A stretch of 64,000 nucleotides of DNA from Candidatus Omnitrophota bacterium (GTDB taxonomy: Bacteria > Omnitrophota > Gorgyraeia > Tantalellales > Tantalellaceae): positions 75,229-139,228 of the forward strand of contig JBARQV010000033.1 in NCBI GenBank assembly GCA_049643885.1. Reading direction: 5' to 3'. The first letter of the stretch is position 1; each line of letters opens with the position of its first letter. A model generated the notes under the pieces. It searched no databases. It had not been told where the DNA came from and saw only the letters and a list, made by a program, of their open reading frames with translations. Below are positions 9,001 to 57,058 of this stretch, piece after piece. The translations under genes were made by a program, and so were the position numbers.

Positions 9001-12000
9001 GCTCTGGGAAATATAGCTGCCTCCCATAATTTATCCCCGGAAACGGCAAAAAGGATATCCGACTTGCTGTTTGTCATGCTGAACGACGGCGATAAGGATG
9101 TTCAGAGGGCGGCTGCCGATGCGCTTGAAGCGATCGGTGAGGCAAAGAAGGACGACATGTGCATTTTATATGCTTATCTTTATGACCCCATAGGGAAGAT
9201 GAAGCATGAGGGGGTCCTGGAGAGGATCGAAATGGGACTTTTGACCAGCCGTCTTATAGGTGCCTTGAATTTGGGATCAAAGGTTCAAGGATCAGCCGTG
9301 AATGTTCTAAGCAGGGTGGCTGACCCGCAAGTAGTCGAGGCGCTGATCGATCAGCTAACGAACGAAGATGCCAATTTCCGTGTCGCTGTCATCAAGGCTT
9401 TGAGAGATATAGGCAAGCGCCTGTCCGAGCGTGTCAATAACGCGAAAGCCAGGGGGAGGAAACCGGATCCGAACGAAGAAGCCACGAAGGGGAGAGTAAC
9501 GGAGGTCCTGTTCTTTTGCTCGGAAAATGACCCGGACACAAGGGTTCGTGAAGCCGCAGCACGTTCTTTGGGGCTGGTCGGCGGTCCGGAGATAAGTCAG
9601 CGGTTATCCGGCATGCTGAAAAAGAAGGATTCCTGGCAGGTTAAGGAGGCCGCGATAGAATCTCTCGGCAAAACGGGTGACGCGAGAGGGGCAACTGCTA
9701 TCTTTGCGATAATGGGCGAAGGCGGTGTGCCGCACGGCGCGTATTTAACCTGTCTCAGGGCCCTGGGCGAGATCAGTCATTCTTTAAGAAGACTTCTCAC
9801 GAGAAATCTGCCTCCTGATATGGAAAAAAGGATAAGAGGATATTTGAAAGCGATAAACAGCAACCTGGTCAAAGGCCTGGAGGACGAGCGCATGGATATC
9901 CGCGCTGTAGCGGCAGAGACGCTGCTCATCAAGTGCGACGTAAGTGAATTAAAGGATATAATCAGCGATCCTGAAAAAGTCCTGCGGGCGCATGTCATTA
10001 TCAACCAGAAGGAAGAACAGGCCTTGCCAACGGCTGCCGGGATCACGCAGGAAATGGCGATAGAGTTTACTACTAAAGCCATCGTTGAAAAGAAATGGAG
10101 CAAATTGGCCGAACTTGGGCAGCACGCTGCTCCCGCGCTGCTGAAGGCGTTAAATGACCCCGTAGCGTTTTTCCGCCAGAAAGCCGCAGAGACCCTGCAG
10201 GTAGTAAGACACCCGCTGACGATAGCGCCGTTGTGGGAACGCCTGTTTATAGAAAAGAGCAATGATGTTTCTTACGCGATCGCGCAGGCTATTCTGGCGA
10301 TGGGCGGGGAGAACGCGGAAAAAGAATTGAAAAAGTTCATCGAGGAACACCCGGATCCTGCTATTTGGAAGGTCACCACGCTGTATCTTATGGGTGAGAC
10401 TAAAAAAGCGTCAACAATGATAAAGAAACTGCTTGAAGAAAACGACCAGGAAATCATACAGAAATTTCTTGAAGACAGGCTGGAAAAAGGTTTCCCAAAA
10501 GAAGAAAAAGAGCCCCTCAAAAAACTTATCGACATGGGCGTAACGATCCATTTTGACATTTTGGCTGATCAGGGATCGAGCAAGACGGCACGCATCGATG
10601 CGCTTAGATTTTTAGGTAAATATGGCGCCGAGAAACAAGTGGATGGCCTGGTCACTGCTTCAAAAAGCAATGATATGGAAATTGTGAAAGAAGCCGGCAC
10701 GGCCCTGGCCAGCATTAATGAGCGCCAAGTGCGGAAAAAGATCCCTACTTATCTCGAAGTTCTGGCTGACCCGGGTGCAAGTTCAAGAGCCCGGGTCGAA
10801 GCGGCGGATTTCCTGGGCGAATACGGCGGGCCGGCCGAACGAAAAGCGCTTGTGAATGCCGCGGGAGGCATGGATTTTAAAGTCACCAAAGCTATCACCA
10901 TGGCCATTTCCAAAATAGACAAGCGTCATGGAGGAAAGAAAAAAGGATCACACGGTTTTGCTTTTCTGCCGTTCGCCATCCCGCAGAACTTCTCTGAGTT
11001 GATCGAGATCATCAAGGAGTCCCCGGTTTGGTGCGGGGCGATCGCCCTCGGCGCTTTAGCCGTCTTCGCAGGCCTTATATTATTTCTACGCTTTGTTTAT
11101 CACAGATTGCGTCCGGTCGTATGGAACCTTAAGAGGATCGGAAGCAAAAATCCCGCAAAGCGCAAAGCCGCCGCAGCGGCATTAGGTGAGCTTGCGCCTT
11201 TTAAGGAAAAAGAAATCGAAGAAGTGATCTCCGCGCTCGAGGAAACCACACGTGATAAGGTCAGTGCTGTCCGTATGGCTGCCGCGGAAGCTATTGGAAA
11301 AATAGGAAAAGAGGCAGAAAACGCGATACCCGATCTTGTAAGACTTGTTATTGAGGACGAAGATCCCCAGGTCCGCATAACCGCCGCCAAGTCACTTGGC
11401 GAAACCGGCCTAATGGGGATCTTCGCCCTCGCTGAAAAGCTGAAGGATGAGGACGCCGCCGTCCGTTTATCCGCGGCGAAAGCCTTCGGCAATGTGGACC
11501 CAAAGACGCCAAAGATAGAACATATATTCGTAAATCTTGAGGGAACCCTGGAAGATCCGGATAAAGATGTCCGTGACGCCGGGATGAACGCTTTTAGCAG
11601 CCTTGATGCCCTGACCCCGGAGCGAAAGGTTAAAAGATATATCGCCGATCTCGGTGACGGGCAGCATGTCGGTGTCCGGGATGAGGCGATGAGACAACTG
11701 GACGAGCTTGATGCCGTGACGATAGGGCTCAGGGTAAAGAAATACATGTTCGACCTGGAAGACGATAACGCGGAAGTCCGTAAGAGCGGCGCGGAAAAAC
11801 TCGGCAAACTGGGCGTTTACGCAAGGGGCCTTGGCAGGAAAATACGTGGTACAGATGAAGAGTTCAGGGAGATGCTAAACGAGCTGAAAAAAGCCGCCCC
11901 TATTCTCGTCCAGATGCTGCAAAAGGATGAAGGTGCGGGTATCCGCGCGGCCGCAGCCGCGGCGCTCGGTGATATAGGGCCTGTTACGTTTGAAGTCGTC

Positions 12001-27000: not shown

Positions 27001-27807
27001 TCGATCTTATCAGGGACTTTACCGGAAGAAACGTTAGAGCCCGCTCACGCGCCGCCTATGGCAGTGCTTCCCGCCCGGGATAAACTGCCGGAAGCCCGGC
27101 CGGAAGTAACTGTTGAAGAGCCCGGGGAAATGGTCCTTGAAGCGGAACTACAGGAAAACATCTCGCCGCTGGACGGGATAATCACGAGGATCCTGCCGGA
27201 CCTTGTGATCGCGCTGCAGACGCTTAGCTACAGAGCCCAGGAGAAGGGGACAGTGGTCATCGCTATCGATGACAGTCTGGGGTCCGGCTGGACGCAGAAA
27301 AAGATCCAGGCGATAAGAAAAACACTTTCGTTCCTGGCAAGGAGGAACGACGAGCTTGCCAAGTTCCTGAACAGGGTCGAGATCCGGCATGCGGATGGTG
27401 TTGAACTTGCCGGAAAACTCAAGATGCTGGAGAAAAACGGTAAGGCCAGCAAAGAAGACATGATAATCATAACCTCGGAAGAGAACCGCAAATATTACGG
27501 GGATTTTGAAGGCGTTTCCACCATGACATGCGTCAATGACAAGCAGATAAACGGTGAGGTATATTTTCCTTTCGTAGAGATAGTACTTTATACTCTTGCC
27601 CGGGCCCTGGCGAACAGAGGCGTCGCGGTTTACGGGAAAGACGTTGTCAAACGCTATTACAGCCTGATATCCAACATGGAACTTGTCGATGACGGCAGTA
27701 TTTACGGGCCGACAGTTGTCATCAGGCTTATACCCGGCGCTACGCCCATAACCGCCGACAGAGAACTTTATGAAAAAATAGCCAGGTTCATCACCACCGC
27801 CGCATAA
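1..27807 (+). CDS. Giant multidomain membrane signalling protein (>=9219 aa, 5'-partial): Ser/Thr kinase + 2xPAS + GGDEF + PBS-lyase/HEAT-like repeat array + PPP-family phosphatase, >=12 TM clusters
   Basis: Single stop-free frame from nt 1 to TAA at 27805-27807. The first in-frame start codon is TTG at 148, but no stop lies upstream in this frame, so the ORF almost certainly continues past the 5' window edge. Domain motifs read directly from the translation are listed as sub-features. Antisense ORFs across this span are shadow ORFs. Confidence 0.9.
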   Translation, partial: VEKVDEKSERFSLKPDRKRTAKLIERLIKKGKKTFVEYTIAERKEIAKALARDYGLKGADLKLFNRSILTESKPEVERWKSGSALITIISLIMLVLAPSRRALAMPEISGAVFTAGNYLGAIGILAGLGAILAVLGILTWRAKRKAIDGKTTARVKKFGAKIVAEEIPYEKLKICHDYDGVFLVTDPKAHFDHQYRLFNYIAFFEPEDKPGVESRRLIFVLQKALELIENLCMNSENETAKEIYSALHKGLIRHDRMVVRVAENLPQTAVLYKRGEVTVLVLKKDLVDEAYVKGHVVGEEDWEVTLWPLCERLNHELGHTDIFRNGPKRSDEECDSVYRDYLLLKLISETKPEFKENVDIYMKRLGEKYGSSFYYGFLNGLLREEKDKKLTGDQVKTEIREFVRENFNDLDADKKAFPFFRGRKKSVTEVSRLAFEEVKKYKHPVTHYSDIRNALKEHHGIDLQDKKYKKVRIDLVKYFANVDALNTIVNFSEYGFLPRKYDEDRQEVIEVAKICAGHDGFAVALHYRKLGLDPERSVDERRATVEIAKICAMQDAEGTIRQFKNFGLGLTEEQEKEFCLDAERASVQTLVQGFAGGKDLRALASATVLMKAVDVAFGQLDFSGLAIGTQAYVKLLLLDKVIKEGEISDEFLLYLRDKVVPSLRVLENLTKNYPTLGMEQGIYKYDFMDRDSFDLGVKLVNFVSRVQGVRQPWWSRSRQDPTASQVRMPPTTYPIFILMIRKMLKMGIISSVAYSTAVAGEHMEEAPFVLTMSYHSAYDYDQYMEINGKKVLKKGEKMPERIAAGEEESHAEKKEKEKKKKIKPQVQGVWQGKTQDPWKGTKLGADDAKTRGTQTKYFHSLVPKDVKAVEKDLERTFLLATAASASLGTYGLEDAELRKAYKSLKDEVKGFLMSRLGLPEKDVEKWLSPDPEKMDVVGDYGNKETGEMLEKIAQKFLMVTGDRSKLMSSGAGGTAVASDVDEMDLGSGYVDRPALYQEFQDIIEKHTKRMFTQMFPGEAGKVLRMGLAEQFEQIDPESVRITALQMCYDADPGRRKRALNQVQAAYPDDYAKIMAAERKSAGSKSVKKHRHKGDKGIGANFDGMIHQGPESEVEFNSRLKDIRSRSIADRYMDRIKKLLKDFVDRADISVRQRNALEEELSNFQKGTYKVYGFNSIVMNSENDFYLGLNDIKKMELFIATDLLSELDELGQKFGDEYLLHELICPVLGHYPAIRAQQGFFTGNYPDEEAKKKQTYKKPYKGLLGVALRNFLEGTEQTIDDFFEYYPLDVKKQGRRVVDPLPPAEIMKQVSEQNWLWMLDEGGRTHKSVVPVSQDTVKGRIRKFRDGLGPVIIEKKLPGVFEKVKIGGNIPLDPGTPFRIFVSGSYFWCKRPLDDLEMDVIVDGYCPLSGPHELELSEDEMKTLFSGLDVKTQPLKIKVNVFGTEQLECAAGDRKIKDLEALRKGKKDEEAEREVLRKAELCEKLIRLPHEAIQLLGRRVDFEELGETRAENILNLYGLDKERVTRSKWLGPKKESRDKKESRDWTVVRMRGVLEYIVKYYNVFEGAINPHKRSEKLIHFISLNRHLPGPTDTIVKSFRKSLFEYIENGELLEERYRFLRPLGAGGMAAVYRAFDTKAKRTVAVKIISDQLSLDPKSVVRFLREARKLSGLRHEGIVSVYDHFDTVDSGQFYTMEAINGVPLNEHFAGKDYNEKELVKVFLNLARGVAYAHSRGIIHRDLKPGNIFVRRNGQTIILDFGLAKYGSDAKDQESGLTMHDELLGTPAYMPREQFSGLFVGVDKELYGFLEINYEDPALKKLEYMKDIETFGNIMYEMATGHVPYPGDTTWAVLWQRVAGVRKPRDHRPEISPDLEAVILKGMSWDPRDRYTAEHLINELQRIYEGRHSKEYADMLKKQRRGFLYKQIPWVAMLAISFFVLPGFWGNLLKLPVLQAFDRGIGVLMMTIGAFVGLRKPLKLALKGIKWVLQKVFGLRIQVEVKRKPDLIQADKDKEEKGVSLPWLMVLQLVPVTLAVVMVFFNILWGFCSWALIGILSAVPFGVFVDKFVARLEKALGKKEEKDESVRRMLAQQAAVAADPGSDSDFDVDPADYSGSADSVPRPPDGGAIGKLFGAEGRQVKEGIIAKERNEFLEFHDNGRKEVLRTKDGREARFKVMGSYKDPDSGQIVKIIEDNEHIRGFANKENLYLSESLVKSLMPTYREIATYHELRHNYYARHPEELPIGINAHTFLRGCGKEVREMVKKALKKNDLKEYFTAEEIISYLGEKLSIARQNPVEIALIRYNEEVLGEKGIELLYGEQDRKFGARANDDFSRELQRQSQIITSSKLPPKTYVPGIVGITLGVFSWLLISFASAYLLKGSFIGSIFSSDVPLLVTKGMISAAFIVSGLVSQHFINLYRGYYRYKELFDDSPVAFHTLDKDFRITGVNKRWCELLGYTEKEVRKHEIFEFIYVDPSDEVDAEKQIRNARERAVARMEGKTVPDKIGYGPYRKYRTKNGKPVIVETRDTTLRDTQNRPTGIQTSFVDVTEAVEAVESLEKERGLLKSITSNTPDFIFVKDTKSRLVFSNDAHFKALGAASFEEVRGSTDFGHFPDELARKYYDDEQGVMKSGIPLIGEEERFIDSSGSERWLSTTKVPLRDSGGEIIGIVGISRDITELRNLQIKDPRTGAYDRKFLLKDEFRARWSMSVERAKHTVSVLMCDLDHFKRFNEAPYDHDTGDLVLRAVVRRIAKELRDGDILVRHGGEEFLVILFNTDAEETGVVANRILSSVRGLFISDEKRGDIDDITISIGGAELTDEEQIQVGIVNKQLAKLVKKKDIGEEELAEATEKLAPLWKRADLALVHRAKREGRDRYVFSEPNHETEKREDAGKDPGSTTLSCIAMTPLLPVILGLNDIATCLTLVAVLAVLFYSIVHFASSESASSGGEGSEEHLISILDSFDLEASCQAAIQLGNIGGEKAAEALLGGRLVNLEPTYKAYKTEALGNIAASHNLSPETAKRISDLLFVMLNDGDKDVQRAAADALEAIGEAKKDDMCILYAYLYDPIGKMKHEGVLERIEMGLLTSRLIGALNLGSKVQGSAVNVLSRVADPQVVEALIDQLTNEDANFRVAVIKALRDIGKRLSERVNNAKARGRKPDPNEEATKGRVTEVLFFCSENDPDTRVREAAARSLGLVGGPEISQRLSGMLKKKDSWQVKEAAIESLGKTGDARGATAIFAIMGEGGVPHGAYLTCLRALGEISHSLRRLLTRNLPPDMEKRIRGYLKAINSNLVKGLEDERMDIRAVAAETLLIKCDVSELKDIISDPEKVLRAHVIINQKEEQALPTAAGITQEMAIEFTTKAIVEKKWSKLAELGQHAAPALLKALNDPVAFFRQKAAETLQVVRHPLTIAPLWERLFIEKSNDVSYAIAQAILAMGGENAEKELKKFIEEHPDPAIWKVTTLYLMGETKKASTMIKKLLEENDQEIIQKFLEDRLEKGFPKEEKEPLKKLIDMGVTIHFDILADQGSSKTARIDALRFLGKYGAEKQVDGLVTASKSNDMEIVKEAGTALASINERQVRKKIPTYLEVLADPGASSRARVEAADFLGEYGGPAERKALVNAAGGMDFKVTKAITMAISKIDKRHGGKKKGSHGFAFLPFAIPQNFSELIEIIKESPVWCGAIALGALAVFAGLILFLRFVYHRLRPVVWNLKRIGSKNPAKRKAAAAALGELAPFKEKEIEEVISALEETTRDKVSAVRMAAAEAIGKIGKEAENAIPDLVRLVIEDEDPQVRITAAKSLGETGLMGIFALAEKLKDEDAAVRLSAAKAFGNVDPKTPKIEHIFVNLEGTLEDPDKDVRDAGMNAFSSLDALTPERKVKRYIADLGDGQHVGVRDEAMRQLDELDAVTIGLRVKKYMFDLEDDNAEVRKSGAEKLGKLGVYARGLGRKIRGTDEEFREMLNELKKAAPILVQMLQKDEGAGIRAAAAAALGDIGPVTFEVVPALVKAVKDPEAKVRESAILALCKFPAATPNMTNAIIGAAGDKNEGVRAAAARFFGGVKPASDRVISVLVKLSGDPDENVRRDARTVLEKLEKPQAAVPSLIEIAKDEEKDLDTRVAAILGLGEITPVTTEAINNLVSFIRAAAGREAVHQKATDRELAGRNIIVGRSSTHETAVLSKSEEEKTHREEFIAGEEFDGKDEFHREVVEKSQTREHDSRRIAYEEAAAREAYLRESETRETSLRKSAEREAAIRETAVEALVKIGPSAKPIFMQLLADDEEYVREAGAHAIAKISPDAVQELISIICATDTDTKSKNFGRDYYFRRYAAKELVKIGPEAVFALMENLESRDPRSRKAVESALGIIGEEPVIEAAVHVFAAKGPEVIPVLVNLAKSEHYHIRLFMARAIRKVGPEAISALAEELNSGKDSDLSHAADALGEVGPDAALAADRLEKLLENEMWWVRNSAFGALKKIGALTLERKKKKFRKDSEDKHSLAYRLSGKKALEELEFREMLGGLGGFVPVFLAQGTLGNYIRTLISKLEELEAANPTAFWVIAGAAGILLTAGVILAARRALRPKRKRYLRMATGEILAERVKGIKGLAELRDRKDLAGLCEALKNDDSPEVREAAAEAIGMFSEAGNTMDVRDVLESALMDPVKSVRATALEAILNIGIGPRAAAEALTVALSESNPLDVREDAAVYLGALGESHRDDVDTIEAIATGLALAMKDENTSIRRAVMRSFNRLAHPRVVGFLAIMLSEDADADIRCEAAEALARTDSPYAVIPLTEAMIGDADSTVRKAATRAVADICAQIKGAPIVKDKVVPVFVEALGDRDKEVRKRVALEFPSIAAPDVLEQVLGPDYQEILEGYTLAAKGELENIGSKGMPALTAALKDNDSSVREAAARRLGELDLSKLIPHVAEALEDPDESVRESAVRVLGDFGDRRAIGLLNQAFYNARTGSSVHAAVREALKKSLMKFVSSLDMDGDKPDKGTTQILFMAVKSDDSSLHEAAAKHIARLDPLEALSSLEKHLTHEGPSVRSVAVNLYKERALKYLSSGPVPSAAPRIVRVLADAGVKDEDTVSRLKTAVLSILDTQPETMVIIDLVAALKGNYDPVFDAVMERIERSDFSQLFPHLVNATSSPKEDIRHGAVLILGRFREEKVIALLERIIGREDPGSLVHITAMETLEWSLIDLICAHPDSPDTERYKGLLFAYGNEDTVKKLRSRLADLKEELSPGLLKILDELQKALHKKIDPGLETFGSFMLLPLASASMYGGAHYLMIFLAYVLYGAVIAGVGVATYMYLLKRYCPDEYRYLTDRWDDLKVGSSLRKQLWQQLRQEEGWKGVLKLEWPRFKASMRRSGRWIVLRFSLIVSYFNRGSSSLQARVRLRAIRELVEYLLTDENYVVRRKAIERIGDQAGLLDKDVSLGDDFIRVLLDEKIIRSPESTVRIAAVKALDKLSRGWKNWLGMPDSLRDPMIGELETSLSDKEPEVRKVAWKVLRDLNEEDEGLIRALTEALKSDDVSVRRDAIAMIMKVKENEGAIKPLLERLTDPNRQVRLDAAGTVCNLTHKIAETQEEAAAVERVKDILMNNDEVARDAEFREIAVNILGNIGYISPVRLLKVTLLDESWRVRRNSAEALGRIAKCLIKTPMGQDIAEVGYIITYLTEALNDKNRLVRKAAADTLLSMDYPAMVKAGIVPSQFEQAKLDRILRGYIFAADKKWEDLGWLGEDAVPALIGELNDEHDPARQKAARSLGDMAIPDPVLNNNAVEALLKRLAGEDDPYVHAVYIHALGKLGDTRALEPLRNILLSDERPFMRMVSIEALGILGSQLEENSIEKGFIYKTLIARLYIDKGTPLISPMVWTLSKMGGPNVVELLITTLKGKNPEGENGPDCMAAVTVLGNLAGEIKKDREPKERTIKTLLPFLSSGNAELRDAAANVLSSLGTTDERLAMGYAEALKSKYSAARKNAAYVLGVLAYSLGPDAVERKEVIKALLEILAGDPDMDARMAAFYSVNKLEATYKQQARAYIKQVHNENMEIRRHAVKSLASYAGILKSPRAVAYALMEAMADPEADIRQTAAEGLRKRTESFDDPEPETVLYSNLYHGNIDAVVAAGKGNVDFLIEVLDSGPKTRKSAIQALGGICQTLSRDPEDVPVREKIVSVLNEVETQTDQDTIYREHAVYELSQIAPAESIPNMIDALKDANDYIRQTAAITLGNIGDAKTVEPLIEAYEAEGQQAQIRREIVHALAKIGGGKAVNAVVKALKDGAIGVRKVAARDLGTIAAKTGNVKAMVYSSLFSGEENWIIRILVGKQIIHGLIDILEKGELPVRLDAMEHLKERAIDFAEDVLFSGEADPATLKCWKILNDELIRTLQDHKRIKDEIEAMQEAEKTAKGVQEIKETKEEEIKKQMGRIAEDTLKEINEMFKENAEAKERLEKALAEKPQEIGNIRDEAMVLYDAMDSGPEVGENAKNIMCQMLSTLKRIPKYRGVLFEFRRDLITCLAVVFKSDSKMMRDSMAELFKDVDDGMAQFYRELYVAEKTDWIIEKIKSESRERRAVTYLFLISSLNICPEIQKTAASILSRTIQYFRRDPVCISRIFSSLVELFEKGQDGDARAAAASSLGEIMLYLESAPEARNALEKEIKEELERFIAVSGDPQEDGKVRAAAAETLGHISPVLKRYPEIKDSAKKVLIDTIRDEEDNTVRAGLAKGLGRLGDPKAIPVLLYVYGLLEEFKKKADDVGSRGAIMLALGQTGSCLKEPLRDEIKEILLGIDVPKKEKGTWEQEVKGLGKSVDTGAIRFLKEILETEENESVKASANKAIKQIEAALKENKRFIDIVIAMLHKGLKDAEVSVRENAVEGLGQICLRMPDIGRKETPFLLRAMRDKDRYVRGAGAKVLRQSGASALVEKAYPEREVLLAYEIVAKKAPSIGGTFTATHLGVAAGLISAREIDRKAFLEQELIALGSNSIPALKDVFEERQLDDPFILTAANVFAIIEDPKTIPIMVKGFPYVNEMGQLGIIGALASLGSKGAVKFMSKTILSSANSKMRAMAALELITRAECDDKEKILGSFFGPTCDNILMAYTSAEQVRENGGQSISLKAIIKSKEEALTKAREAKRRAAIWEKTRELAAEQGKLDRAEKGLKENTARLIVLGEDAVPALIPQLKEEREAIMRIVVEILSKIGSTKAIIPLSRVLPKVKNPEIQLLAIETLEKLGSSLLQTRAEEDAKSKGKIPRALREVWKFIAGIFTGIFHETGSFLEWIPKGKKPKDPKKTAFLSKKRIVYWGRSLRWRIVDKINNAGRSLKRDPLRVEADMLIGTLTSKDEKALDLASGALDNLRIPLRKIINGEIKAFNESPHPTARKFAAELLCDYALTEGAGRWAKFRIRNLLFRGLSDENLDVIEASHKSLIKLGVAPERIARAEISAFSNPHAKARKFAVEFLSRYITPKKSEEAGEAEDGKKSEEKLERKIIAILFDASRDIDAGVRRSASNALGKLGLTGEHRIEDLKEICGRSGAKSGKAARALVYSLYDPYGEVVEFAMEKLKSPTAKKAVPYLAAVLSDESAPFVRLAAATILGDIGDTKAIESLRKRLSDSDVKVRRTAYESLALLDEPKGLIEALVRLLVKTPELDEKVRNDALAFLGEIASNMGREAQEVQDGINMLVKASSETVMEMPLYSAVIEAMNQLGASQEQFITVINGALNSFDGNVRQAAAEHLAGINAPSVEREGRTEEHREAQDQEVQDQGTVELGGFAFMPFVLAAGELRTGVLLWIAIVSIILPVVWAIVLRHQIKQWWGKSGRPGLSAAWTWIKEWRPYRVKLWFWNAMSHAAQPSFRAAAIRRLGIYRGKVDAKRCDLIDRRLMACLFDNRFPGGIVEAMEILKNIGNEQMARSLVVILHGEEEASTRQAAVEILSEIVKAGKIKDPAFQRSAKETMFLLLRDDPDTDVRAEASVAARHLGATNDQIIEAYILALKSKHAEARKVAVMNLAGLGAKHAKAKILRLISGEEDDEVLNAAVDAVRKLGASEEEIGAARLRSIASEMSEHFGESWIAKGEPSAEEQPKVAAEAITKAQPAASAEKAAVEQAQKAPPREGRGFSAWLAGTWLGRFGLWIGRKVKIQWMLIMPMSGQPKKRIAAVRYLAKYGVKREKILKIITKYMGDPDLDVAAAVMEVLSKPENKEAVPFLIGALADKDHMVRLRAVASLGALGAKEAIRSLLGCLADENEKVRAIAYRVLTASLNAPDEFLVPKLVSLTKHRDAGIRKDAIKFLGKRASVLGKDSSDVQKAINDLSVRCYNRKLSGDEYNTVVEAFHVLPITRDQLVSAMLAAIGSSDENVCVAALNVLGDYGTSFKARDAIVQIIQKEEPSSRKHQAAQVALSKITARETGRADDHDIFDQGENGSTTLHSFDLFAMGTMLAALSSVHWTILSFIVISILGGLVTYFILAWKKAFVRDAPDKYAAAKPERPEVRFMGTESQTIKAFRAKARRAKDTATTLMSVYWETGSIADSHGNVARVKQLVKALVKRGAKRIVLLGDYIDRDVRSRELLEYVKWLMDGTAPELEGNKIEIVPLMGNHELMFIYAMLGNHLAFDWWVDNGGDKTLERFGITREMVFRELMAEGEVPSGQETKKRMYEKALKNTELRELANWMRMNFRLSYLDERKVLYLHAGINVNDRGLPDLRYGNKHNLEALEKMQEDLRSAEKKEDIKKIFSELSDDSSPLFLREVLYGEGLVPWYEYIARKGTADEFCRKLGVSAIVVGHDPQEGEAVNVGNRIFVTDILMQKQYFQDVKRDHDTGTRPLNAAELEATLAASERGRGGFLLIGIQGIVAGVVKFAVELSREHRMSRPRGKEDKDVVGTSLLVSRKQLNTFVAECLQLRRKKDAQKQTRARRKAAKKNEKKKGRSGLKGGRALGILLFLTFISKSAFGFEPEGLFNNAIIYSPEAAAVFALSAAVIFVIGMYAAAFVVTGGLALIGLTIGGIGKGASILSGTLPEETLEPAHAPPMAVLPARDKLPEARPEVTVEEPGEMVLEAELQENISPLDGIITRILPDLVIALQTLSYRAQEKGTVVIAIDDSLGSGWTQKKIQAIRKTLSFLARRNDELAKFLNRVEIRHADGVELAGKLKMLEKNGKASKEDMIIITSEENRKYYGDFEGVSTMTCVNDKQINGEVYFPFVEIVLYTLARALANRGVAVYGKDVVKRYYSLISNMELVDDGSIYGPTVVIRLIPGATPITADRELYEKIARFITTAA
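943..957 (+). other. HExxH motif (HELGH) in the N-terminal unknown region of the giant protein; possible zincin-like metallopeptidase signature
   Basis: Codons cac gag ctt ggg cat. An isolated motif is weak evidence on its own. Confidence 0.2.
4843..5700 (+). other. Hanks-type Ser/Thr protein kinase domain within the giant ORF
   Basis: Gly-rich loop LGAGGMAAVY, VAVK lysine, catalytic loop HRDLKPGN (5206-5229), DFG (5266-5274) and GTPAYMPRE. All catalytic residues are present. Confidence 0.85.
7276..7650 (+). other. PAS domain 1 within the giant ORF
   Basis: FHTLDKDFRITGVNKRWCELLGYTEKEVRKHEIFEFIYVDPSD is PAS-like, and it follows a TM pair at about 7050-7230. Confidence 0.6.
7690..8030 (+). 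other. PAS domain 2 within the giant ORF
   Basis: ITSNTPDFIFVKDTKSRLVFSNDAHFKALG ... GEIIGIVGISRDITE is a typical PAS fold ending (IxGxxxDITE). Confidence 0.65.
8050..8625 (+). other. GGDEF diguanylate cyclase domain (GGEEF variant, RxxD I-site present)
   Basis: The domain begins RTGAYDRKFL. It carries DLDHFKRFN, an I-site-like RDGD five residues before GGEEF (8281-8295), and LRAVVRRI. Confidence 0.8.
8880..25230 (+). other. PBS-lyase/HEAT-like repeat super-array (about 5.4 k aa) interrupted by TM hairpins and E/R-rich or coiled-coil linkers
   Basis: Repeat units of about 31 aa of the form xxVRxxAAxALGxIG(D/G)xxA(V/I)xxL occur throughout, e.g. DSSVREAAARRLGELD...DESVRESAVRVLGDFGDRRAIGLL. 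Hydrophobic TM clusters sit at about 10960-11100, 13640-13720, 15790-15930, 23280-23420, 24320-24420 and 25270-25390. An E/R-rich linker lies at 12430-12780 and a coiled-coil-like EK-rich segment at 19130-19350. Confidence 0.8.
25517..26400 (+). other. PPP-family (calcineurin-like) Ser/Thr phosphoprotein phosphatase domain within the giant ORF
   Basis: IADSHGN is a GDxHG variant, GDYIDRD (25642-25662) is a GDxxDRG variant, and GNHE lies at 25758-25769. A later VVGHD completes the set. A basic juxtamembrane stretch and 2-3 TM helices follow at 26650-27000. Confidence 0.75.
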
Positions 27808-27871
27808 AACCCGTCTCTTAACAAACATTTTAAACGTTCATTAGATGTTTGATCTATCTGAATGCTGAAAA

Positions 27872-27965
27872 GGCCCGGGGGTGTATTCCGTGCTCAGACA
27901 GTCCAAAAAAAAGCGACCTAAAATCGCTTTTTTTTGGAAACTCGCACTGAACACACCCCCGGGCC
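27872..27965. terminator. Nested palindrome 3' of the giant gene, with an intrinsic-terminator-like core
   Basis: Outer GC clamp GGCCCGGGGGTGT (27872-27884) pairs with ACACCCCCGGGCC (27953-27965). It encloses A8-GCGA-cctaaaa-TCGC-T8 (27905-27935), which reads as a terminator hairpin on either strand. Confidence 0.4.
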
Positions 27966-28062
27966 TTTCCGTAACCCTGACAGGTCAAACCTCGCTCGTC
28001 CTCTGTCTTCATGGATCCGGCACAATGAAACCCTTTGCAGCGATAGTTTTAATCCGGACGTA

Positions 28063-28149
28063 AAGTTGCACAGTGCAGTATGTTCCCGTACAGGGAGGAT
28101 CCACGCCGGGCGGAGGGGCCCTGGTAGGGAGCATACTGCACTGTGAACT
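28063..28149 (+). repeat. GC-core hairpin repeat, copy A (family 1)
   Basis: aagttgcacagtgcagtatgttccc GTACAGGGAGGATCCACGCCGGGCGGAGGGGCCCTGGTA gggagcatactgcactgtgaactt. The imperfect stem is about 19-24 bp and the only non-Watson-Crick pair is a G-U wobble on the plus strand. The core matches copy B (35720-35797) and the reverse complement of copies C and D (55556-55729). Confidence 0.85.
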
Positions 28150-28237
28150 TTGCATATTTTTGCCTACGGCCTCGCCCGGGATGACATATTATTTATCTGT
28201 CTTCTGTTATCTGTCCACTGTCTTCTAAACCTCGTGC

Positions 28238-35683: not shown

Positions 35684-35719
35684 GAAAATGCCGGATAGCA
35701 TAACACAAAGAGCAAGAAG

Positions 35720-35797
35720 CATAGTGCAGTATGTTTCCGTACGGGGAGGATCCACACCGGGCGGAGGGGCCCTGGCAGGGAACATACTGCACTGTAT
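35720..35797 (+). repeat. GC-core hairpin repeat, copy B (family 1), intra-operonic between hisB and hisH
   Basis: catagtgcagtatgtttcc GTACGGGGAGGATCCACACCGGGCGGAGGGGCCCTGGCA gggaacatactgcactgtat. The wobble pair has moved relative to copy A (U-G at a different stem position), so pairing is kept. Confidence 0.85.
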
Positions 35798-35852
35798 AGT
35801 TTGCATCCAAGTCCAGCGCAGAGCAGTGAGTGGTGGACTGAAATGGTGATCT

Positions 35853-44069: not shown

Positions 44070-44117
44070 CCCCACACTTCCGTGTGGGGAATGAATACTA
44101 CAGGCGGAAGCCTGTAG
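44070..44117 (+). repeat. Double-hairpin element X1 (family 2) between the trpB stop and the trpA start
   Basis: Hairpin 1 is CCCCACAC-ttcc-GTGTGGGG (44070-44089). The linker AATGAATA follows. Hairpin 2 is CTACAGGC-ggaa-GCCTGTAG (44098-44117). It is homologous to X2 at 47729-47776. Confidence 0.8.
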
Positions 44118-47728: not shown

Positions 47729-47776
47729 CCCCATGCTTCCGCATGGGGAATGGATACCACGCACGGAAGTGTGTGG
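47729..47776 (+). repeat. Double-hairpin element X2 (family 2) between the S2P stop and the rpe start
   Basis: Hairpin 1 is CCCCATGC-ttcc-GCATGGGG. The linker AATGGATA follows. Hairpin 2 is CCACGCAC-ggaa-GTGTGTGG, with one G-U pair. Relative to X1, both stems changed sequence and kept pairing, while both loops are unchanged. Confidence 0.8.
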
Positions 47777-49867: not shown

Positions 49868-49883
49868 ATCATACGTGCGAATT

Positions 49884-49941
49884 TATCCCGTCCGAAATAA
49901 AAACGTCCCAAGTGGCGTCGGGGATGATAGCGGACGGGATA
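49884..49941 (+). promoter_or_regulatory. Long hairpin abutting the lepA start codon
   Basis: TATCCCGTCCG (49884-49894) and CGGACGGGATA (49931-49941) form an 11-bp perfect stem with a 36-nt loop. The right arm ends 1 nt before the ATG at 49943, and no obvious SD lies outside the stem. Confidence 0.35.
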
Positions 49942-49942
49942 A

Positions 49943-51760
49943 ATGATGGATCTTAAAATTATGGATAAACTCTCACAAATACGTAACTTCTGTATTATCG
50001 CGCACATAGACCACGGAAAGTCTACTCTTGCCGATCGGATCATTCAGGCTACCGGTGCGGTAAGCGCGAGGGATTTCAGGGACCAGTTCCTGGATGACAT
50101 GGATCTGGAACGGGAAAGGGGTATAACCATAAAGTCAAGCGCCGTGAAGCTTAACTACACGGCAAAAGATGGTAATACTTACTTTTTGAACCTTATAGAT
50201 ACTCCTGGCCATGTGGATTTTAGCTATGAGGTCTCCAAGACGATCGCCGCCTGCGAGGGAGCGCTTCTCGTTGTGGATGCCGTCCAGGGCGTGGAAGCGC
50301 AGACGATCGCTAATCTTTGCCTGGCCATGGAACATGACCTCAAAATAATACCCGTTATAAACAAGATCGACCTCAAAAGCGCCCGCGTGGAAGAGGTCAA
50401 GCAGCAGATGAAAGAGATATTGGACATCAAAGATGAAGAGATCATTTTGACCAGCGCCAAGGAAGGCGTAGGCACGGAAGAGGTCCTGAACGCGGTAGTT
50501 GAAAGGGTCCCCCCGCCCTCAGGGGGATATGAGAAGCCCTTGCAGGCTTTGATCTTCGATTCTTCATATGACACGTACAGGGGAGTCATCATTTATGTCC
50601 GTATAGTCAACGGCTATCTCAGGGCCGGCATGCATGTAAAGATGATGAACACGGGAACAAGTTATGAGATCAGGGAGGTCGGGATATTCACGCCGCAGGG
50701 TCAGGAAGTCGAAGAGCTGGTCTGCGGTGAAGTCGGATATATGGTTTGTAATATCAAAGAAGCCAAAGAGGTCGTAGTGGGAGACACCATAACATCCCTG
50801 GAAAACCCCGCGGAAAAGCCCCTTCCGGGTTACAGAATGGTGAAACCCATGGTCTACAGCGGCATATATCCCGTCAGCAATGAAGATTATGAAGAGCTTA
50901 AAAGCGCGATGGAAAAACTCCGGCTGTCTGATTCTTCTTTTATCTACGAACCGGAGACGTCGGCTGCGCTGGGATTCGGCTTCAGGTGCGGTTTTCTCGG
51001 GCTCCTGCACATGGAGATCATACAGGAACGCCTGGAAAGGGAATTCGACCTGGACCTGATAGTATCCAGTCCAAGCGTGAATTACAGGATAAAACCGTTG
51101 AAAGACGATATGATCGAGATCGATAACCCCACTAAATATCCCGACAGGCAGAAGGTCGAATACGCGGAGGAACCGTTCGTGAGGTGTTATATCATCTCGC
51201 CGAGCAACTCCCTCGGGACCCTTATGAAACTTTGCGAAGGCAAACGCGGTGAATTTGTCAGTACTAAATATCTTAATCCTGAGAAGGCCCAGCTGACCTA
51301 TAACGTACCGCTTTCGGAGATAGTGGTGGATTTTTACGACAAGATAAAATCATCCACCCAGGGATACGGCTCACTTGATTACGAATTTATAGGCTACCGG
51401 AAGTCGGACGTGGTGAAACTTGACATCCTTATCAACGGGATCCCCTGCGACGCGCTTTCATCCATCGTCCACAGGCAAAAGGCCAGGGGCAGGGGGCAGG
51501 AGCTCGTCCTGAAATTGAAGGAGACCATCCCCAAGCATATGTTTAAAATAGCCATCCAGGCGGCTGTGGGAGGGGATATACTGGCGCGCGCGGACATATC
51601 CGCGCTCAAAAAACACGTTACCGGTAAGTGTTACGGCGGTGACATTACCAGGAAAAGGAAACTCTGGGAAAAACAAAAGAAAGGTAAACAAAAAATGCGC
51701 AAAGTGGGAAAAGTGGACGTCCCGAAAGAAGCGTTCCTGAAAGCGATGAGGGTGACATGA
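49943..51760 (+). CDS. lepA: Elongation factor 4
   Basis: IRNFCIIAHIDHGKSTLADR and DTPGHVDF are G-domain motifs, and the LepA C-terminal domain follows. The start may instead be the ATG at 49961. Confidence 0.95.
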   Translation: MMDLKIMDKLSQIRNFCIIAHIDHGKSTLADRIIQATGAVSARDFRDQFLDDMDLERERGITIKSSAVKLNYTAKDGNTYFLNLIDTPGHVDFSYEVSKTIAACEGALLVVDAVQGVEAQTIANLCLAMEHDLKIIPVINKIDLKSARVEEVKQQMKEILDIKDEEIILTSAKEGVGTEEVLNAVVERVPPPSGGYEKPLQALIFDSSYDTYRGVIIYVRIVNGYLRAGMHVKMMNTGTSYEIREVGIFTPQGQEVEELVCGEVGYMVCNIKEAKEVVVGDTITSLENPAEKPLPGYRMVKPMVYSGIYPVSNEDYEELKSAMEKLRLSDSSFIYEPETSAALGFGFRCGFLGLLHMEIIQERLEREFDLDLIVSSPSVNYRIKPLKDDMIEIDNPTKYPDRQKVEYAEEPFVRCYIISPSNSLGTLMKLCEGKRGEFVSTKYLNPEKAQLTYNVPLSEIVVDFYDKIKSSTQGYGSLDYEFIGYRKSDVVKLDILINGIPCDALSSIVHRQKARGRGQELVLKLKETIPKHMFKIAIQAAVGGDILARADISALKKHVTGKCYGGDITRKRKLWEKQKKGKQKMRKVGKVDVPKEAFLKAMRVT

Positions 51761-54997: not shown

Positions 54998-55372
54998 ATG
55001 AGGCAAATGGTTTTTCGAAATATCCTTGGCAATAATCCGAGGAAGTACGAAATATCACTTGAGGAGATAAGTGACCGGTATAGGTCCACATTGGCCAGGA
55101 AAATTATTTCTAAATATTTCGTCAAAGATAAATATGAGGCAAAAGACCAAGATGACGCACAGTTGTGGATAGATCTGAACAAGAGAAGCGATATGCCCCA
55201 TAATTGCCATATATTGACCACGATAAACTCCCGCACAGGAGATCATAAGATGATATGCAAGGCGATGGGAAACTTTTACATGATAATACGGTCTATGGTC
55301 TATAAGCTGGTGTATATAAACGAGGTACGGATCCAGATAAAGAATGTCAGGAAGGTGAAAAATGAAGGCTGA
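54998..55372 (+). CDS. Hypothetical small basic protein (124 aa) in the low-GC islet
   Basis: The ATG has a GAGG RBS 7 nt upstream. AT-rich codon usage differs from the neighbouring genes. I recognise no domain. Confidence 0.5.
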   Translation: MRQMVFRNILGNNPRKYEISLEEISDRYRSTLARKIISKYFVKDKYEAKDQDDAQLWIDLNKRSDMPHNCHILTTINSRTGDHKMICKAMGNFYMIIRSMVYKLVYINEVRIQIKNVRKVKNEG

Positions 55373-55478: not shown

Positions 55479-55522
55479 ACAAGAGAGGACATAATTATTC
55501 GTATCTCTTTCCTCCAGATAAA

Positions 55523-55548
55523 GGGGCGGCTGATCGCCGCCTCTTTTT
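55523..55548 (+). terminator. Rho-independent terminator (GGGGCGGC-tgatc-GCCGCCTC-TTTTT)
   Basis: It has an 8-bp GC-rich stem, a 5-nt loop and a T5 run, and it closes the islet transcription unit. Confidence 0.65.
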
Positions 55549-55555
55549 ATATATA

Positions 55556-55626
55556 GCTGCGGTATATTTCCTACCAGGGCCCCTCCGCCCGGTGTGGATC
55601 CTCCCTGTACGGAAACATACCGCAGC
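55556..55626 (-). repeat. GC-core hairpin repeat, copy C (family 1, minus orientation)
   Basis: The reverse complement reads ctgcggtatgtttcc GTACAGGGAGGATCCACACCGGGCGGAGGGGCCCTGGTA ggaaatataccgcag. The single non-Watson-Crick stem pair is A-C on the plus strand and G-U on the minus strand. Confidence 0.85.
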
Positions 55627-55666
55627 TATTCGATTAAAATAAGCACAAGACTTGCAATTATAAAAT

Positions 55667-55729
55667 CGGTATATTTCCTACCAGGGCCCCTCCGCCCGGT
55701 GTGGATCCTCCCTGTACGGAAACATACCC
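55667..55729 (-). repeat. GC-core hairpin repeat, copy D (family 1, minus orientation), tandem with copy C
   Basis: The core is the same as copy C with a shorter outer stem of about 11 bp. It lies 40 nt downstream of copy C. Confidence 0.8.
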
Positions 55730-55825
55730 CACTATGTATTATACATTCCACATTATCTTTAAGGGTACTCTTATAGCTTCCAACATTGACTATAACTATT
55801 ATATATGTTAAACTCTTGTGATATT

Positions 55826-56818: not shown

Positions 56819-56897
<79 letters not shown>

Positions 56898-57058
56898 TTT
56901 GTAAGTGTCATCCCGGAATTCCGCAAAGCGGAATATCCGGGATCAAGTGGAAATACTTTTATTTTTATGAGATCCCCGCCCCCGCTTTCGCGAGGACATG
57001 CTTTCGCGGGGATGACATATCATTAACAAATAGTTTTCTTTTACGGAAAAGGTGAGCT

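Follow-up and report, generated by a model that had tools for sequence, protein, structure and literature searches.

The question raised by a 64-kb stretch of DNA from a Candidatus Omnitrophota bacterium (contig JBARQV010000033.1, positions 75,229 to 139,228; hereafter the window) is what kind of element accounts for the four copies of a short palindromic sequence, here called the Family-1 element, that lie dispersed along it. An earlier note on this DNA had taken them for a small family of repetitive extragenic palindromic (REP)-like or structured-RNA elements and had read their base pairing as selection on an RNA fold rather than on DNA. From the evidence given below, the elements look like selfish mobile DNA rather than regulatory RNA, and we assign a probability of about 0.6 to the reading that they are small, gene-less, non-autonomous mobile palindromic elements spread in trans by a factor encoded elsewhere in the genome.

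A 31-nt pattern, GGAGGATCCACRCCGGGCGGAGGGGCCCTGG, had four matches in the window, all with 0 mismatches, at 28094-28124 (+), 35745-35775 (+), 55574-55604 (-) and 55681-55711 (-), and none in 100 dinucleotide-preserving shuffles. An unfiltered search of the window with a covariance model (CM) derived from 53 members of the family returned exactly the same four copies at 73 to 91 bits, the reverse complements scoring only 9 to 30 bits. Both searches thus place the copies at essentially the coordinates that the earlier note had claimed. The copies are 60- to 88-nt hairpins around the invariant core GGGAGGATCCAC(A/G)CCGGGCGGAGGGGCCC, in which an outer stem of 19 to 24 bp is followed by a symmetric internal loop (GUA/GUA), an inner stem of 5 bp that ends in GGG/CCC, and an apical loop of 23 nt. 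In copy A (class 1; full hairpin 28063-28150, +; CM score, 90.9 bits; ΔG of −55.2 kcal/mol; z, −8.3), the variable 5′ arm of the outer stem (28064-28087, with a G bulge at 28068) pairs with the 3′ arm (28127-28150), as identified by the fold and by family covariation. The 5′ half of its GUA/GUA loop (28088-28090) faces 28124-28126, and within its invariant 29-nt core, GGGAGGATCCACGCCGGGCGGAGGGGCCC (28093-28121), the GGG/CCC clamp closes the apical loop at 28096-28118. Copy B (35714-35801, +; core 35744-35772) scored 81.6 bits (ΔG of −43.3 kcal/mol; z, −6.1), copy C (55548-55635, −; core 55577-55605) scored 88.5 bits (ΔG of −47.6 kcal/mol; z, −8.0), and the partly degraded copy D (55656-55742, −; core 55684-55712) scored 73.0 bits (ΔG of −30.8 kcal/mol; z, −3.5), having lost most of its outer stem, of which only ∼11 bp remain. 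Copies C and D share 98% identity over 65 nt in direct orientation, 107 nt from start to start, and are therefore not independent. The alignment bore out three further points of the earlier note: the quoted core is identical in all four copies apart from the purine (R) position, the inner stem of copy B carries a change from A-U to G-U, and the outer stems differ between copies yet remain complementary, with compensatory changes.

The four copies belong to a much larger family. Species-representative genomes were scanned with a 25-nt core, and metagenomes were scanned separately. The genome scan gave more than 113 stretches with the core among the matches listed, from at least 33 species-level assemblies, and the metagenome scan added at least 120 more. 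The genome hosts were mostly metagenome-assembled genomes (MAGs) labelled Candidatus Omnitrophota, plus one single-cell genome. Several “binchicken” MAGs were labelled Planctomycetia, one of them syntenic with the window, a few hosts were labelled Deltaproteobacteria, and one complete 2.9-Mb chromosome was labelled Bdellovibrionota; a larger structured RNA around the copy with this last label was considered and found unsupported (z, −1.2). Element density was about 1 per 16 to 130 kb. One MAG carried dozens of copies, many of them at contig ends or on short contigs, and the Logan short-read contigs encoding the exact HisB of the window all broke ∼90 nt past hisB, inside the core of copy B. Such breaks at contig ends and in Logan contigs are the behavior of a dispersed repeat in assemblies.

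The earlier note had recognized no known motif, and none was found. In the window, only a tRNA-Pro passed the Rfam gathering score; a permissive Rfam scan of copy A returned only chance-level matches (E > 2), and six further family loci yielded one tRNA and nothing else. Neither the core sequence nor a comparable repeat in Omnitrophota was found in the searchable literature, and the family is apparently undescribed, so far as Rfam and the searched literature show. The core had no match in 2.9 million viral contigs (IMG/VR), PLSDB plasmids or INPHARED phages, and the longest shared unit, which carries no gene, was ∼195 nt; on these grounds, the elements being part of a larger insertion sequence (IS) or prophage was rejected. 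Direct tandems of two or three copies, 80 to 430 nt apart with identical flanks, were present at L008 (5448-6132), L095 (1329-1512), L161, L169 and L173. These loci mirror the C/D pair and suggest local duplication of the element together with its flank. In assembly CAZTCI01 (L003, L030, L044 and L066), the element sits within a ∼150-nt repeat with an extra outer inverted repeat, TCTCATAAATGGC...GCTATTTATGAGA; these repeats are a composite subfamily.

The 29-nt module that forms the core is the sole part constant across the family. Hamming matching over ∼1.57 Mb of fetched DNA identified 230 exact 29-mers and 33 with one mismatch (263 at ≤1), the common single change being A/G at position 13. 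Just 11 sites had two or more core mismatches (the extreme being 8 of 29; the weakest may be chance matches), which argued against the idea that the core seems invariant only because copies were collected by exact matching. As few secondary copies were sampled free of this bias, purifying selection is claimed for propagating lineages only, not for each copy. In the core (for example, 28093-28121), the sense strand of the loop contains two Shine-Dalgarno-like GGAGG/GGA motifs and the palindromes GGATCC, CCGG and GGGCCC, and the stretch GGAGGAUCCA appears by eye to be complementary to the universal 16S 3′ tail except for a 2-nt bulge.

Around this tip, the rest of the hairpin varies. The median hairpin is ∼85 nt, with some subfamilies reaching ∼195 nt, and most copies have a stem with a symmetric purine-rich internal loop, either GUA/GUA or tandem GA/GA. 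Class 1, the type found in the window, has the layout ..CCGUAC-N-GGG[loop]CCC-N-GGUAGG.. with a GUA/GUA loop, in the alignment of which the 5′ GTA is invariant and the 3′ GTA nearly so. In class 2, the loop at this position is a tandem GA/GA and GTAG is missing; in many copies, the stem base bears a second conserved motif, GCGGGUGRC...GNCAGGNCCCGC. The helices of a third group are continuous. Because each multicopy genome examined carries mostly one architecture, the distribution suggests prolonged vertical diversification of the stems, with the tip frozen, in preference to a single recent transfer.

Stem pairing was assessed in a gapless alignment of 53 distinct class 1 copies, with shuffles and alignments in which the partner column was slid as controls. 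Standard pairs filled 92.6% of cells, against 35 to 47% in the slid controls, and the outer-stem columns were 91% paired across the 53 members. Changes on both sides were found in 23 of the 24 outer-stem pairs, amounting to 499 such cells compared with 168 in shuffles, and the covariation score was 0.773 against ≤0.178 in controls. Individual outer-stem columns held up to five pair types, and the termini differed between copies within one genome. At the pair adjoining the GGG/CCC clamp, 235 copies gave UA 100 times, AU 73, CG 32 and GC 8, with 13 non-pairs. Stem pairing is thus under selection.

The pairing is also strand specific. On the claimed strand (plus for copies A and B, minus for C and D), the non-Watson-Crick stem pairs of the window copies, read by hand from the alignment and the folds, were all G.U (one in A, three in B, one in C and one in D), and folds of the opposite strand were 5.7 to 9.0 kcal/mol worse. 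This signal, weak on four copies, was strong across 248 unique copies (126 from genomes and 122 from metagenomes) in which the constant core had been replaced by a GAAA loop and both strands folded. G.U pairs numbered 564 on the claimed strand and 314 on the other, 1-by-1 A/C mismatches numbered 50 and 177, respectively, and the sense fold was the better one for 214 of the 248. The two independent samples agreed (genomes: G.U, 300 versus 152; A.C, 28 versus 93; sense fold better in 109/126; metagenomes: G.U, 264 versus 162; A.C, 22 versus 84; sense fold better in 105/122). The A-C mismatches are therefore not equally frequent on the two strands, as a refutation in the terms of the earlier note would have required, and the strand-specific wobbles described in the earlier note hold for the family. 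Since the signal persisted after GAAA replacement, the constant core was discounted as its source. The asymmetry was equal whichever strand of the locus, G-rich or C-rich, was the sense strand, and it was present in each architecture class, so that mutation bias linked to GC skew was ruled out and strand-biased mutation is not the explanation. One strand of the element matters. That this strand acts as RNA rather than as DNA, as the earlier note had concluded, does not follow, since folded single-stranded DNA (ssDNA) also tolerates G.T wobbles and tandem G.A pairs.

Two explanations in terms of host function draw on these features. The elements could be a host DNA-level signal, either a binding or cruciform site for nucleoid, topoisomerase or segregation proteins or a DNA-uptake signal. 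In E. coli, bacterial interspersed mosaic elements have been proposed as binding or cruciform sites for such proteins, the three short palindromes of the core could bind dimeric proteins, and an invariant sequence found in both orientations, between and within genes, resembles uptake sequences. A duplex or cruciform, however, gives no reason for G.T being favored 2:1 and A.C disfavored 3.5:1 on one strand. The density given above is low for such a signal, and the copies in genes are insertions of 90 to 130 nt relative to homologues rather than motifs arising by point mutation. We regard this explanation as quite improbable. Because the in-gene copies are whole-hairpin insertions, insertion of the core alone into preexisting host hairpins was also rejected.

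The second explanation is that the hairpins are functional structured RNAs of the host, whether small-RNA genes or cis-regulatory or stabilizing hairpins, whose loop binds the anti-Shine-Dalgarno tail or a CsrA-like partner. The strand-specific tolerance of G.U and the very strong covariation would be expected of such RNAs, symmetric GUA/GUA loops and tandem GA loops are motifs typical of RNA, the invariance of the core across many species suggests a conserved partner, and copy B lies in sense within the his operon. The genomic context speaks against it. By a crude gene call based on open reading frames (ORFs), 26 copies were co-directional with their flanking genes, 26 opposed, 15 between divergent and 10 between convergent genes, which is the expectation if insertion between genes is random. 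The flanks differ from copy to copy, and no promoter or terminator conserved among them was found. Given the random orientation and the lack of a U-tract after the hairpins, a co-transcribed 5′ or 3′ untranslated-region element or a terminator was rejected.

The positions of the window copies bear on the same point. Copy A lies in the spacer that separates a giant ORF of 9,219 amino acids (stop at 27807) from cinA, downstream of both this ORF and a 150-nt hairpin and upstream of a good promoter-like site for cinA-thpR-recA. Copies C and D are antisense to the neighboring genes, between a terminator-like site (55520-55546), just past which copy C begins, and a promoter-like site for gpsA (55786-55814), upstream of which copy D lies. 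Copies A, C and D are thus in terminator-promoter spacers and apparently untranscribed. Of the window copies, copy B alone, which lies in the 169-nt hisB-hisH spacer (flanking genes identified as IGPD and GATase by Pfam) in the same direction as the his operon, is expected to be co-transcribed in sense. With orientation random, three of the window copies in such spacers, copies within genes mostly antisense to the mRNA (15 of 19, below), occupancy differing between syntenic genomes and no Rfam match, the structured-RNA half of the earlier proposal was not supported as a transcribed functional RNA, and we consider it unlikely.

About a tenth of the copies lie inside long ORFs. The reading frame was open through ±240 nt in 19 of 225 testable copies (about 8%), of which 15 were antisense to the mRNA and 4 sense. 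Seven of the host ORFs were confirmed as genuine by Pfam, encoding a CCA-adding/poly(A) polymerase, a CcsA-like cytochrome c assembly protein, a RimO/MiaB-type radical-SAM (S-adenosylmethionine) protein, CobQ, HypF, YfhO and a class II aldolase, and in four of these seven (HypF, RimO-like, CobQ and the CCA-adding enzyme), Pfam or PDB homology flanks the insert on both sides. Compared with solved structures, HypF is longer by ∼30 residues and the RimO-like protein by ∼43, with well-aligned blocks to either side of each insert. The core is free of stop codons in all six frames, and the element was read in five of them, all three antisense (GPLRPVWIL, APPPGVDP and GPSARCGS) and two sense; with five frames used, no peptide is preferred. 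The preserved frame and the predominance of antisense copies favor translation of the insert, which would add 30 to 43 amino acids, over its removal at the RNA level. Structured inserts within essential genes would be explained by a miniature intron excised from host mRNAs, or by an element that is bypassed in them. Every genic copy seen, however, was stop-free and in frame, which is needless if the insert is excised, and most were antisense, so that the mRNA holds the poorly folding strand. Further, none of four tightly flanked intergenic copies checked split a gene by frameshift, each lying between an ordinary gene end and gene start. This explanation is extremely improbable.

Occupied sites differ between related genomes. 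The window from 50 to 58 kb is syntenic with locus L001 at 72 to 74% nucleotide identity, and the two share a small ORF (54998-55372), its terminator and the gpsA promoter. Copies C and D, in the spacer between that terminator and promoter, are present in the window only and are absent at L001, while L001 has a family member (1284-1308) directly 3′ of tRNA-Pro, where the window has none. As occupancy differs between these syntenic genomes, turnover is high. In the window, the spacer 3′ of tRNA-Pro (tRNA, 56819-56894; spacer, 56896-57035) holds a different hairpin (56910-56944; z, −5.5), and the tRNA-Pro 3′ site seems to attract palindromic insertions.

A mobilizing gene was sought beside the copies. 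All ORFs within 2 to 3 kb of 113 and then 233 loci were clustered, and no recurrent neighbor gene was found; the most recurrent clusters reached at most 5 loci and were housekeeping or generic families (kinases, glycosyltransferases, TPR and ABC proteins). A linked cognate protein was rejected on this basis. No RAYT-like gene, IS or reverse transcriptase (RT) was found within the same distance of the 233 loci. One explanation that accommodates the lack of a linked transposase is a retro-mobile element akin to a short interspersed nuclear element (SINE), whose sense RNA would be recognized through its loop by an RT encoded elsewhere and copied into DNA, and the RNA-type structural constraint on one strand only fits it. 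Such an element would be at odds with the lack of a 3′ tail, the symmetric and palindromic ends, the lack of a clear target-site duplication or an internal promoter, and the lack of an RT beside any copy. We know of no bacterial precedent for SINE-like retro-mobility outside group II introns, and this route seems very unlikely.

Under the reading that we favor, the active form would be a single strand in its folded state, namely the sense strand (GGGAGGATCC...GGGGCCC), and movement would occur in trans through a folded single-stranded sense-strand intermediate. The invariant tip may be the recognition, and possibly the cleavage, module for a mobilizing protein, by analogy most plausibly a structure-specific nuclease or transposase of the HUH type, as in REP/RAYT or IS200/IS605 systems. 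Copies are seen facing either way in the sparse gaps between the genes of these compact genomes and occasionally within genes, every genic copy seen leaving the reading frame open. Lineages would go on yielding copies only as long as the tip is intact and the stem paired, and such selection among element lineages, rather than host benefit, would maintain the tip and the stem and account for the invariant core, the compensatory evolution of the stems and the strand-specific wobbles. The intermediate is more likely ssDNA than RNA, by analogy, because there is no promoter, tail or reverse transcriptase and half of the copies face away from transcription, and because the best-understood hairpin mobilizers act on ssDNA. 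These include RAYT, the IS200/IS605 TnpA and Rep proteins that nick a conserved loop.

Several observations weigh against this reading. The mobilizing enzyme is still only a candidate class, proposed by analogy, and mobility is judged from presence or absence between genomes that are ∼27% diverged rather than from an empty site with exact junctions. No empty site was found among near-identical strains: all assemblies with an identical HisB carry copy B, the three from NCBI have a hisB-hisH spacer of equal length, and a look-up by GpsA gave no match. No clear target-site duplication was seen; flanking direct repeats were near the chimera control (4-mers, 33 versus 17.5; ≥5-mers, 11 versus 7.6), and the palindromic ends blur the boundaries. 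Orientation relative to local GC skew was 45 versus 67 family-wide (p of about 0.05; copies non-independent), a weak bias unlike the strong one of IS200/IS605-type ssDNA transposition. GC skew in the window is strong and positive throughout (+0.11 to +0.18), and the copies, all in one replichore, are two per orientation. Finally, a selfish repeat would not usually keep 29 nt invariant over dozens of species, including MAGs labelled as other phyla; REP sequences as a rule co-diverge with their RAYT. The invariance of the core could instead mean a conserved host function or host partner.

An invariant tip in more than 250 copies across dozens of species, on stems that have turned over completely into at least three architectures, is hard to square with an ordinary selfish repeat that coevolves with its transposase. 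The tip could instead be the ligand of a deeply conserved machine, the element either hijacking an essential host enzyme, being copied from an RNA template as a SINE analogue, or being a phylum-wide module of host function that also spreads; given the two GGAGG/GGA motifs, that function may be, for example, a decoy for the ribosome or CsrA. We hold this to be a minor possibility.

Comparison with known systems bears on the favored reading of a mobile palindrome. The closest in behavior are the Rickettsia palindromic elements (RPEs) reported by Ogata et al. in Science in 2000. Like the Family-1 elements, these are small gene-less palindromes dispersed in a compact genome, located both between genes and, in frame and stop-free, within housekeeping genes, where the inserts add a few dozen residues, and they have no obvious terminal repeats or target duplications. 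The host lineage differs, being PVC (Planctomycetes, Verrucomicrobia, Chlamydiae)-type uncultured bacteria here, no sequence relationship was detected, and the likeness claimed is one of behavior rather than of membership in an RPE family. The Family-1 elements are further set apart by an invariant 29-nt apical module over dozens of species, free stems and the use of at least five reading frames.

With the REPs and REPINs of Proteobacteria, which are mobilized by RAYTs (Y1 HUH transposases), the elements share the form of short imperfect palindromes in tens to hundreds of copies, often clustered (here copies C and D and the triplets at L008), a non-autonomous nature, a folded single strand, a proposed mobilization in trans and, in class 1, a GTAG beside the clamp. 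However, REPs conserve the stem and a 5′ GTAG and are species specific, whereas here the loop is conserved, the stem is variable and GTAG is confined to class 1. REPs are extragenic, whereas about 8% of copies here are intragenic, and RAYT genes are typically flanked by REPs, whereas no RAYT-like gene accompanied these loci. REP-like was thus the better half of the earlier proposal, although the defining features of REPs (a conserved stem rather than loop, an adjacent RAYT and an extragenic location) fail.

[quoted passage not shown] Their terminal inverted repeats, however, match a parent IS and are accompanied by target-site duplications, whereas the termini are the most variable part of the Family-1 elements. 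Integron attC sites resemble them as imperfect palindromes of 57 to 141 nt that act as one folded DNA strand, with structure conserved over sequence, but in attC sites the conserved part is the stem base (R and L boxes) and the apex varies, the opposite of the layout here, and they lie in cassette arrays beside an integrase rather than as solitary copies among housekeeping genes. Elements of the IS200/IS605 type (PATEs) show a strong bias with replication direction, in contrast to the two orientations seen here (45 versus 67 against skew). The GC clusters of yeast mitochondria, “byp” and the double-hairpin elements of Allomyces are also GC-rich hairpins that spread in compact genomes, coding sequences included, but they belong to eukaryotic organelles and differ in sequence, and byp is bypassed by the ribosome, whereas the copies here are in frame. 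Overall, the layout of an invariant loop on free stems is the reverse of that in the REP, MITE, attC and IS200/IS605 systems compared.

The window has other repeats and hairpins. Almost every credible gene is on the plus strand, with ends overlapping or abutting, and repeats occupy the few spacers longer than ∼150 nt. The 9,219-amino-acid ORF (148-27807, +) makes up 43% of the window and contains a periodic ∼37-nt repeat family; no Family-1 copy was found within it in the search of the window. Giant genes have been reported as an Omnitrophota hallmark. Inside the ORF, a ∼100-nt hairpin (11340-11443; ΔG of −47.2; z, −5.8) may be an in-frame palindromic insertion from another family. Directly after its stop lies the near-perfect 150-nt hairpin (27844-27993; ΔG of −76.7; z, −11.2), 70 nt upstream of copy A, with a bidirectional terminator-like motif (A8-GCGA...TCGC-T8) at its apex at about 27907-27940; its sequence bears no relation to the Family-1 core. 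A second small repeat family, a double hairpin with the layout CCCCACAC-UUCC-GUGUGGGG ... ACAGGC-GGAA-GCCUGU, was present at 44070-44117 (+) and 47732-47776 (−), its two copies being in inverted orientation, ∼76% similar and in or adjoining short intergenic gaps. A 64-nt hairpin (49881-49944; z, −3.6) occupies most of a 76-nt gap between two plus-strand ORFs.

Assemblies are the only source of knowledge on Omnitrophota and their relatives, uncultured and ultra-small bacteria that may be predators or parasites. The Family-1 element is a dispersed repeat that breaks these assemblies and needs recognizing, and it adds extra peptides to core enzymes, namely HypF, RimO, CobQ and the CCA-adding enzyme. 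The 176 complete Omnitrophota genomes reported in 2026 would allow phylogenetic profiling. With the invariant 29-mer as bait for a partner protein, the long-open question of how gene-less hairpins move becomes testable. The family does not represent a new principle; as an example, it is unusual in how widespread it is and in how clean its strand-specific signal is, and it would be the second, independent case, after Rickettsia, of palindromic selfish DNA colonizing protein-coding genes.

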